Source: Escherichia phage vB-Eco-KMB26. From it: a stretch of 64,000 bases of DNA. A model generated the notes under the pieces. It did not search any database, was not told the DNA's origin, and was given only the letters and a program-made list of their open reading frames with translations. Positions 39,806 through 40,264 of the stretch are shown here, piece after piece. The first letter of the stretch is position 1. Each line of letters begins with the position of its first letter. Made by a program: the position numbers and the translations under genes. The stretch is taken from sequence record OR539218.1. The stretch is one strand, 5' to 3'.

Positions 39806-40264
39806 TTATTTTAAATCATCTGCCCAATCGAGTTTAAGAGGCTCTTTGTATTCACGGTCAAGTACAACCGGAATTTGTACATCACCGCTAAATGATAAGG
39901 GCCCAACATTATAAGACAATGTTATATGCGGTGTGTAATCATCAAAATCGTGTGTAGCACCTAGTGCCCGCGCATACATGTGTCGACAGCGCAGATATTC
40001 AGAATCTAACACAAGTACAAGAGTCGATCCATCTTGTGTTTTCCACACTTCTAAATGTCCAGAAGAAGCTACTTCAAAACTTCCACTCGATGGAACATAT
40101 GGAATATTTACTCTTGAATAACATATAGTCGAATGAATTTTTTCTCTAGGAACTGGATTAGGAACACGTAAAGCGCGCTGGAGTTCTTCCAGCGCGTCAA
40201 GTGTTAATTCTGAAAACTTAGCTGCTACATAAAGACCCGTTGAAAAGTCTTTAAATTCCATCAT
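39806..40264 (-). CDS. 57B: gp57B; 2H phosphoesterase (T4 57B is the anti-CBASS nuclease Acb1)
   Basis: 152 aa; two H-x-T/S motifs (HSTI, HITL); size and position match T4 57B. Confidence 0.8.

Follow-up and report, generated by a model that had tools for sequence, protein, structure and literature searches.

Two orthologs of T4 anti-CBASS genes lie on the minus strand

The window, a 64,000-nt stretch of DNA from Escherichia phage vB-Eco-KMB26 (OR539218.1), carries on its minus strand the orthologs of T4 genes vs.4 (acb2) and 57B (acb1). The gene orders regB, vs.3, vs.4, vs.5 and gene 1, 57A, 57B are as in T4, with acb2 directly upstream of vs.3 and regB. The features of the two loci are as follows.

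29060-29521, minus strand: regB endoribonuclease gene, collinear with T4 regB and annotated regB in NC_054914
29581-29859, minus strand: vs.3, 92 aa from ATG; ATG and acb2 stop have one base in common (TAATG)
29859-30125, minus strand: acb2 (gene vs.4), 88 aa from ATG; putative cyclic-dinucleotide sponge, after T4
30118-30339, minus strand: vs.5, 73 aa; its stop overlaps the acb2 start (ATGATTGA); annotated Vs.5 in NC_054914
30134-30138, minus strand: GAGGA, Shine-Dalgarno sequence as read from the DNA, 8 nt upstream of the acb2 ATG and inside the 3' end of vs.5
39806-40264, minus strand: acb1 (gene 57B), ATG start, 152 aa plus stop; 2H phosphoesterase with putative cyclic-oligonucleotide cleavage, after T4
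39928-39920, minus strand: catalytic HIT codons within acb1
40135-40127, minus strand: catalytic HST codons within acb1
40261-40491, minus strand: gene 57A (tail-fibre chaperone), ending in a TGA that overlaps the acb1 start codon (ATGA)
40491-41216, minus strand: gene 1, which heads the 1-57A-57B order, as in T4

The window is almost certainly an ordinary Tequatrovirus (T4-like) coliphage segment with orthologs of both characterised T4 anti-CBASS genes. The 24-kb stretch spanning acb1 and acb2 matches, at 99.2-99.5% identity, the Yersinia phages PYps15T and PYps14T as well as 232Ecol030PP and vB_EcoM-fFiEco06 (hereafter fFiEco06), which are Escherichia phages. The 55-80 kb region of T4 is collinear with the window at 94-98% identity, cassette-type indels excepted, and fFiEco06 is also collinear with it.

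Acb1 is a full-length ortholog of T4 gp57B

An earlier note, made from the sequence alone, had assigned the ORF at 39806-40264 to 57B/Acb1, and the comparison with T4 bore this out. The protein is identical to T4 gp57B (NP_049750; UniProt ACB1_BPT4) at 150/152 positions (99%), the differences being S31A and V54I. It matched the Pfam family PF23474 (Acb1) with 201.6 bits against a cut-off of 27 (E=6e-60), covering profile positions 1-144 of 144, and as a query it matched PDB 7T26 with E=1.4e-61. PDB entries 7T26 and 7T27 are crystal structures of Acb1 from Erwinia phage FBB1. No NCBIfam model was matched by the Acb1 or the Acb2 protein.

The same note had drawn attention to two HxT/S motifs, HSTI and HITL. 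Both are kept, as H44-S45-T46-I47 (nt 40135-40124) and H113-I114-T115-L116 (nt 39928-39917), and they are the only H-x-S/T motifs in the protein. Two or more such motifs also arose in 14% of shuffled sequences with the composition of this protein. By itself the motif pair is therefore weak, non-significant evidence, and the identity of Acb1 rests on full-length homology.

Residues of Acb1 with a published function are the HxT/HxT tetrad (H44, T46, H113 and T115), the nucleobase-stacking residues Y12, W74, F107 and W147, E141, which reads adenine N6, and a C-terminal lid formed by residues 145-152 (Hobbs et al., PMC9117128). The window Acb1 has Y12, H44, T46, W74, F107, H113, T115, E141 and W147 at the same positions (9/9), and the lid is kept with the sequence that it has in T4. 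Alignment of the catalytic histidines had been named beforehand as a test of the assignment; H44 and H113 align with the histidines of T4 Acb1 and FBB1, as does the tetrad as a whole. Residues 55-152 show no difference from T4. At columns 31 and 54, T4, fFiEco06 and FBB1 have S and V, whereas the window protein has A31 and I54; on sequence grounds both changes are conservative, and they fall outside all functional residues named in the literature.

Public records offer a different reading of gene 57B, in which it encodes an RNA ligase or a LigT-like RNA-repair enzyme and any cyclic-nucleotide cleavage is incidental. PHROG 755 carries the label 'RNA ligase', RefSeq uses this name for T4 57B and for the fFiEco06 ortholog, and Pfam 2_5_RNA_ligase2 gave a weak, sub-threshold match to the window protein (E=0.089, 13.3 bits against a cut-off of 27) that reflects the shared 2H fold. 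The label derives from similarity of the 2H fold only, and the specific Acb1 family scores 201.6 bits. Moreover, T4 57B, which is 99% identical, was found by activity-guided fractionation as the cGAMP-degrading activity of infected cells, and T4 without acb1 loses this activity and becomes CBASS-sensitive (Hobbs et al. 2022, PMC9117128). We consider a primary role in RNA ligation or repair hardly credible and rejected 'RNA ligase' as the function of 57B. Acb1 is the reading adopted here.

T4 Acb1 cleaves its substrates without metal and rescues the phage from CBASS (PMC9117128). The substrates are 3'3'-cGAMP, cUA, cAAA and cAAG, while cGG, cUU and 3'2'-cGAMP are left uncut (PMC9117128, PMC10312549). 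From the published experiments on T4 and FBB1, and from the 99% identity, we infer that the window Acb1 has the same catalysis and the same effect in vivo.

The ORF at the vs.4 position encodes Acb2

The earlier note had placed a candidate Acb2 at 29859-30125 by gene order after regB, and here too the assignment held. The protein is identical to T4 Vs.4 (NP_049728) at 84/88 positions (95%) over its full length, differing by E13D, C50F, F52L and T64A, and is 100% identical to fFiEco06 YP_010069142. It matched PDB 7UQ2 ('Vs.4') with E=8e-54 and the Pfam family PF24729 (Acb2/Tad1 hairpin) with E=1.5e-20 and 73.6 bits against a cut-off of 27; the PaMx33 Acb2 structures were matched weakly in phmmer (E~0.01). 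The window thus appears to encode two distinct anti-CBASS proteins, one signal-degrading and one signal-sequestering, as the earlier note had proposed, with T4 matches of 99% and 95%.

A mechanical ORF list starts this gene at a TTG at 30161 (100 aa). This start lies inside vs.5 and was rejected in favour of the ATG at 30125, which has GAGGA 8 nt upstream and agrees with the T4 annotation and with the crystallised protein.

T4 Vs.4 assembles as a hexamer, and each hexamer takes up three molecules of cGAMP at a Kd of about 30 nM (Jenson et al., PMC10097602); across studies the Kd for cGAMP is about 30-85 nM, and the ligand is not cleaved (PMC10097602, PMC10312549). Its stacking residues are Y8 and F82, with contacts from H11, K23 and R79; S74 is named as well, T12 is a helix cap, and L29, F33, A66, A73 and A77 make up the hexamer interface (Jenson et al., PMC10097602). 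All 13 published binding, cap and hexamer residues are kept in the window Acb2, among them Y8, H11, T12, K23, L29, F33, A66, A73, S74, A77, R79 and F82. Within the aligned parts of 47 IMG/VR homologs, no variation was seen at Y8, H11, K23, A66, A73, S74, A77, R79 and F82 and hardly any at T12, whereas positions 37-64 vary freely and positions 50, 52 and 64 are hypervariable. None of the four substitutions touches a published cGAMP-contact or hexamer-interface residue. C50F, F52L and T64A fall in the hypervariable middle stretch, and E13D is conservative and adjoins the T12 helix cap. Taking the T4 and PaMx33 experiments together with the 95% identity, we infer dinucleotide binding, hexamer formation and CBASS inhibition for the window Acb2. 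At the level of sequence, both proteins have every feature by which membership of the Acb1 and Acb2 families is judged. What the analysis shows directly is identity with the T4 proteins, conservation of all published functional residues and synteny.

The window Acb2 is predicted to bind cyclic dinucleotides only

T4 Acb2 binds cyclic dinucleotides and does not bind cA3 or cAAG (Cao et al., PMC10312549). In PaMx33 Acb2, trinucleotides are bound via R67/T74 and A70 contacts cA3 (PMC10312549). T4 has D61 at the position of R67, and its helix geometry differs too (Cao et al., PMC10312549); Y37, A57, L60, D61 and T64 have been proposed to clash sterically with cA3, and D61R alone gave T4 Acb2 no cA3 binding, for which helix geometry and angles were blamed rather than single side chains (PMC10312549). 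The second, trinucleotide pocket is a sub-family trait of Acb2 and does not define the family. It is not seen in the window protein, in which D61 replaces PaMx33 R67 and T68 occupies the position of T74. Because the window allele keeps D61 and T68, as T4 does, a range limited to cyclic dinucleotides is predicted.

We also weighed the reading that the window Acb2 is functionally unlike that of T4, having either been inactivated, as in T2, or shifted in ligand range via T64A, C50F and F52L. Natural T-even phages can lose the dinucleotide site: T2 Vs.4 is without the IKGY segment that includes Y8, and the Panoptes paper describes the T2 dinucleotide site as disrupted (PMC12657218). This fits the N-terminus of T2 Vs.4 (NC_054931; locus L049, 3591-3851), an ortholog at the same locus that shows no difference from the T4 protein after residue 8 and has a rearranged N-terminus (MKILRD-KPHT) without IKGY and without the cGAMP-stacking Tyr8. 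T2 Vs.4 is presumed to be defective in dinucleotide binding. The window allele is intact here. With IKGY/Y8 present, a T2-type N-terminal lesion was ruled out, and inactivation is very unlikely because all other dinucleotide-site and hexamer residues are kept as well.

As for a shifted range, C50F, F52L and T64A belong to the helix region that lines the pocket for trinucleotides, a pocket unused in T4. T64A is the only change in the window Acb2 with a published structural comment, T64 being among the five T4 residues proposed to clash with cA3, and A64 equals the cA3-contacting A70 of PaMx33; the change also restores a PaMx33-like 'LAI.KT' segment. Together with the neighbouring C50F and F52L, T64A could broaden or adjust the range, giving for example weak cA3/cAAG binding or an altered affinity for 2',3'-c-di-AMP (the Panoptes decoy), and the window Acb2 would then be a naturally occurring specificity variant among T-even phages. 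Against this, D61 (PaMx33 R67), Y37, A57 and L60 are unchanged from T4, and positions 50, 52 and 64 are hypervariable across homologs. Since D61R alone failed to restore cA3 binding in T4 and helix angles were blamed, we rate a range changed via T64A as unlikely, indeed as an outside chance at best. Any functional departure from T4, by either route, seems decidedly improbable, and a T4-like Acb2 is the reading that we carry forward.

Two IMG/VR T4-like contigs (L040 and L042) carry distant Acb2 homologs (51-52% identity) in which D61 is replaced by Arg and residue 64 is Ala, a pair resembling R67 and A70 of PaMx33, and Glu at the T68 position. From their sequences, these may be partial trinucleotide-pocket variants among T4-like phages.

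Gene context and repeats near acb1

Given the overlap of its ATG with the 57A stop, acb1 comes last in a 1-57A-57B unit. The overlaps at acb1/57A (ATGA) and acb2/vs.5 (ATGATTGA) make both genes look translationally coupled to their upstream neighbours. One further feature lies upstream of 57A and acb1.

40847-40854, minus strand: TATAAATA, within gene 1; matches the late-promoter consensus of T4, by pattern only

This match is non-significant on its own, the window containing 13 late-promoter consensus matches against 11 expected by chance. Promoter and terminator scans of the window in general gave counts near chance.

T4 ipI encodes IPI*, an inhibitor of GmrSD type IV restriction. In the window, ipI is replaced by two small minus-strand genes (39165-39410 and 39475-39732), annotated Ip6 and Ip5 in NC_054914, with capsid-targeting-type N-termini (MKTYQEFIAE... 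and MKTFKEFATK...). Neither Ip6 nor Ip5 matched a Pfam family above the curated threshold. A 71-nt direct repeat is present in three copies with 61-86% identity (39122-39192, 39420-39490 and 39751-39821), each directly 3' of a gene on the minus strand (ip6, ip5 and acb1). The copy at 39751-39821 enters the final acb1 codons and stop (...DDLK*) and that at 39420-39490 enters the end of ip5 (...EDLK*). In the two closer copies there is a sequence resembling T4 early promoters, GTTTACA-N17-TACTAT. The repeats look like recombination boundaries of internal-protein gene cassettes.

Other differences from T4 in the window

The window also departs from T4 at several other sites. Two regions, at 21309-21572 and 22846-23831 (minus strand), correspond to the insertion of a DUF4031 gene after nrdC.10 and to the replacement of the mobD HNH homing endonuclease of T4 by a 153-aa ORF, for which no Pfam match was found, and a protein of 173 aa that has both T4_y05I domains, N-terminal and C-terminal. 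At 32140-32147 the window lacks ipII and ipIII, which in T4 take up about 1.1 kb between denV and e, and the lysozyme gene e comes almost immediately after denV, an arrangement shared with fFiEco06. At 37308-38135 (minus strand) there are ten tRNA genes (Arg, Asn, Tyr, Met(CAT), Thr, Ser, Pro, Gly, Leu and Gln), compared with eight in T4; the segB homing endonuclease that interrupts the T4 tRNA cluster is absent, with tRNA-Asn and tRNA-Tyr in its place.

Distribution and annotation of the two genes

Among 50,697 deposited phage records, 1,470 contain Acb1-like genes and 1,232 contain Acb2-like genes. A protein identical to the window Acb1 is recorded for Escherichia phage vB_EcoM_KMB26, and its UniProt cluster is named Anti-CBASS protein Acb1. 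The exact Acb2 protein occurs in 74 contigs, fFiEco06 among them, and its UniProt cluster is named 'Acb2/Tad1 hairpin domain-containing protein'. This Acb2 allele is common: 56 phage records match it at >=99% identity, and many deposited Tequatrovirus genomes carry it. Both acb1 and acb2 were visible in 5/48 loci scanned with 10-kb flanks (IMG/VR loci, with the T4 and fFiEco06 reference regions included), a count that does not imply gene absence, as the flank limit stops just short of 57B and acb1 is for this reason unseen in most IMG/VR loci. In close relatives, public records mostly call the two genes 'hypothetical protein' or 'RNA ligase'. The practical value of our analysis lies in annotation, since the records of relatives could be updated to Acb2 and Acb1, and it extends little beyond this.

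Two probable, complementary routes to CBASS inhibition

Acb1 (gp57B) would act as a metal-independent 2H phosphoesterase, clamping an adenosine-containing cyclic di- or trinucleotide between aromatic residues under the C-terminal lid. The H44/T46/H113/T115 tetrad would then cleave 3' of adenosine with a 2',3'-cyclic phosphate as the intermediate, so that 3'3'-cGAMP, cUA, cAAA and cAAG may be destroyed before CBASS effectors are activated. Acb2 (Vs.4) would sequester signals without cleaving them. In the proposed mechanism it forms a hexamer with three inter-subunit pockets, each with Y8/F82 stacking and contacts from H11, K23 and R79, which would hold cyclic dinucleotides with a Kd of about 30-85 nM and so out of reach of the effector. 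The ranges may complement each other: Acb1 would take the trinucleotides that a T4-type Acb2 leaves unbound, and Acb2 would probably cover 3'2'-cGAMP and cUU, which Acb1 leaves uncut. PaMx33 Acb2 binds these two ligands, and T4 Acb2 is reported to have the same cyclic-dinucleotide spectrum (PMC10312549).

Loss of acb1 together with acb2 leaves T4 highly sensitive to a type II CBASS of E. coli (bioRxiv 10.64898/2026.03.04.709575). Judging from these precedents, the phage should resist many CBASS systems that signal through cGAMP, cUA or cAAA, and its intact Acb2 should make it a target of Panoptes, which senses Acb2. The Acb1 and Acb2 pair has already been described in T4 and other Tevenvirinae (PMC9117128; PMC10097602; PMC12657218; bioRxiv 10.64898/2026.03.04.709575). 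The reading of the window as carrying this anti-CBASS pair is correct but already known biology.

Comparison with characterised Acb1 and Acb2 proteins

The T4 and window genes 57B encode proteins of equal length (152 aa), and both genes follow immediately after 57A with an ATGA overlap. Downstream of acb1 the two phages differ, with ip5/ip6 in the window and ipI in T4. The acb2 genes of both encode 88 aa and lie between vs.5 and vs.3, upstream of regB. In contrast, vs.5 is intact in the window (73 aa), whereas a 1-nt deletion in the T4 reference (TTTCG-CGAG) truncates Vs.5 to 58 aa, and the vs.5-vs.4 junction is an overlap in the window and a 36-nt gap in the T4 reference. FBB1 Acb1 is more distant, at 67% identity, and shares the HxT/HxT tetrad, the aromatic clamp, E141 and the lid sequence. 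PaMx33 Acb2 (PDB 8H2J, 8H2X, 8IY0 and others) belongs to the same fold family (Pfam PF24729) at about 24% identity; its Y11/K26 align with Y8/K23 of the window protein, and the 'LAI.KT' segment around A64 is shared. PaMx33 Acb2 also binds cyclic trinucleotides through R67/T74, whereas the window Acb2, like that of T4, has D61 in place of R67.
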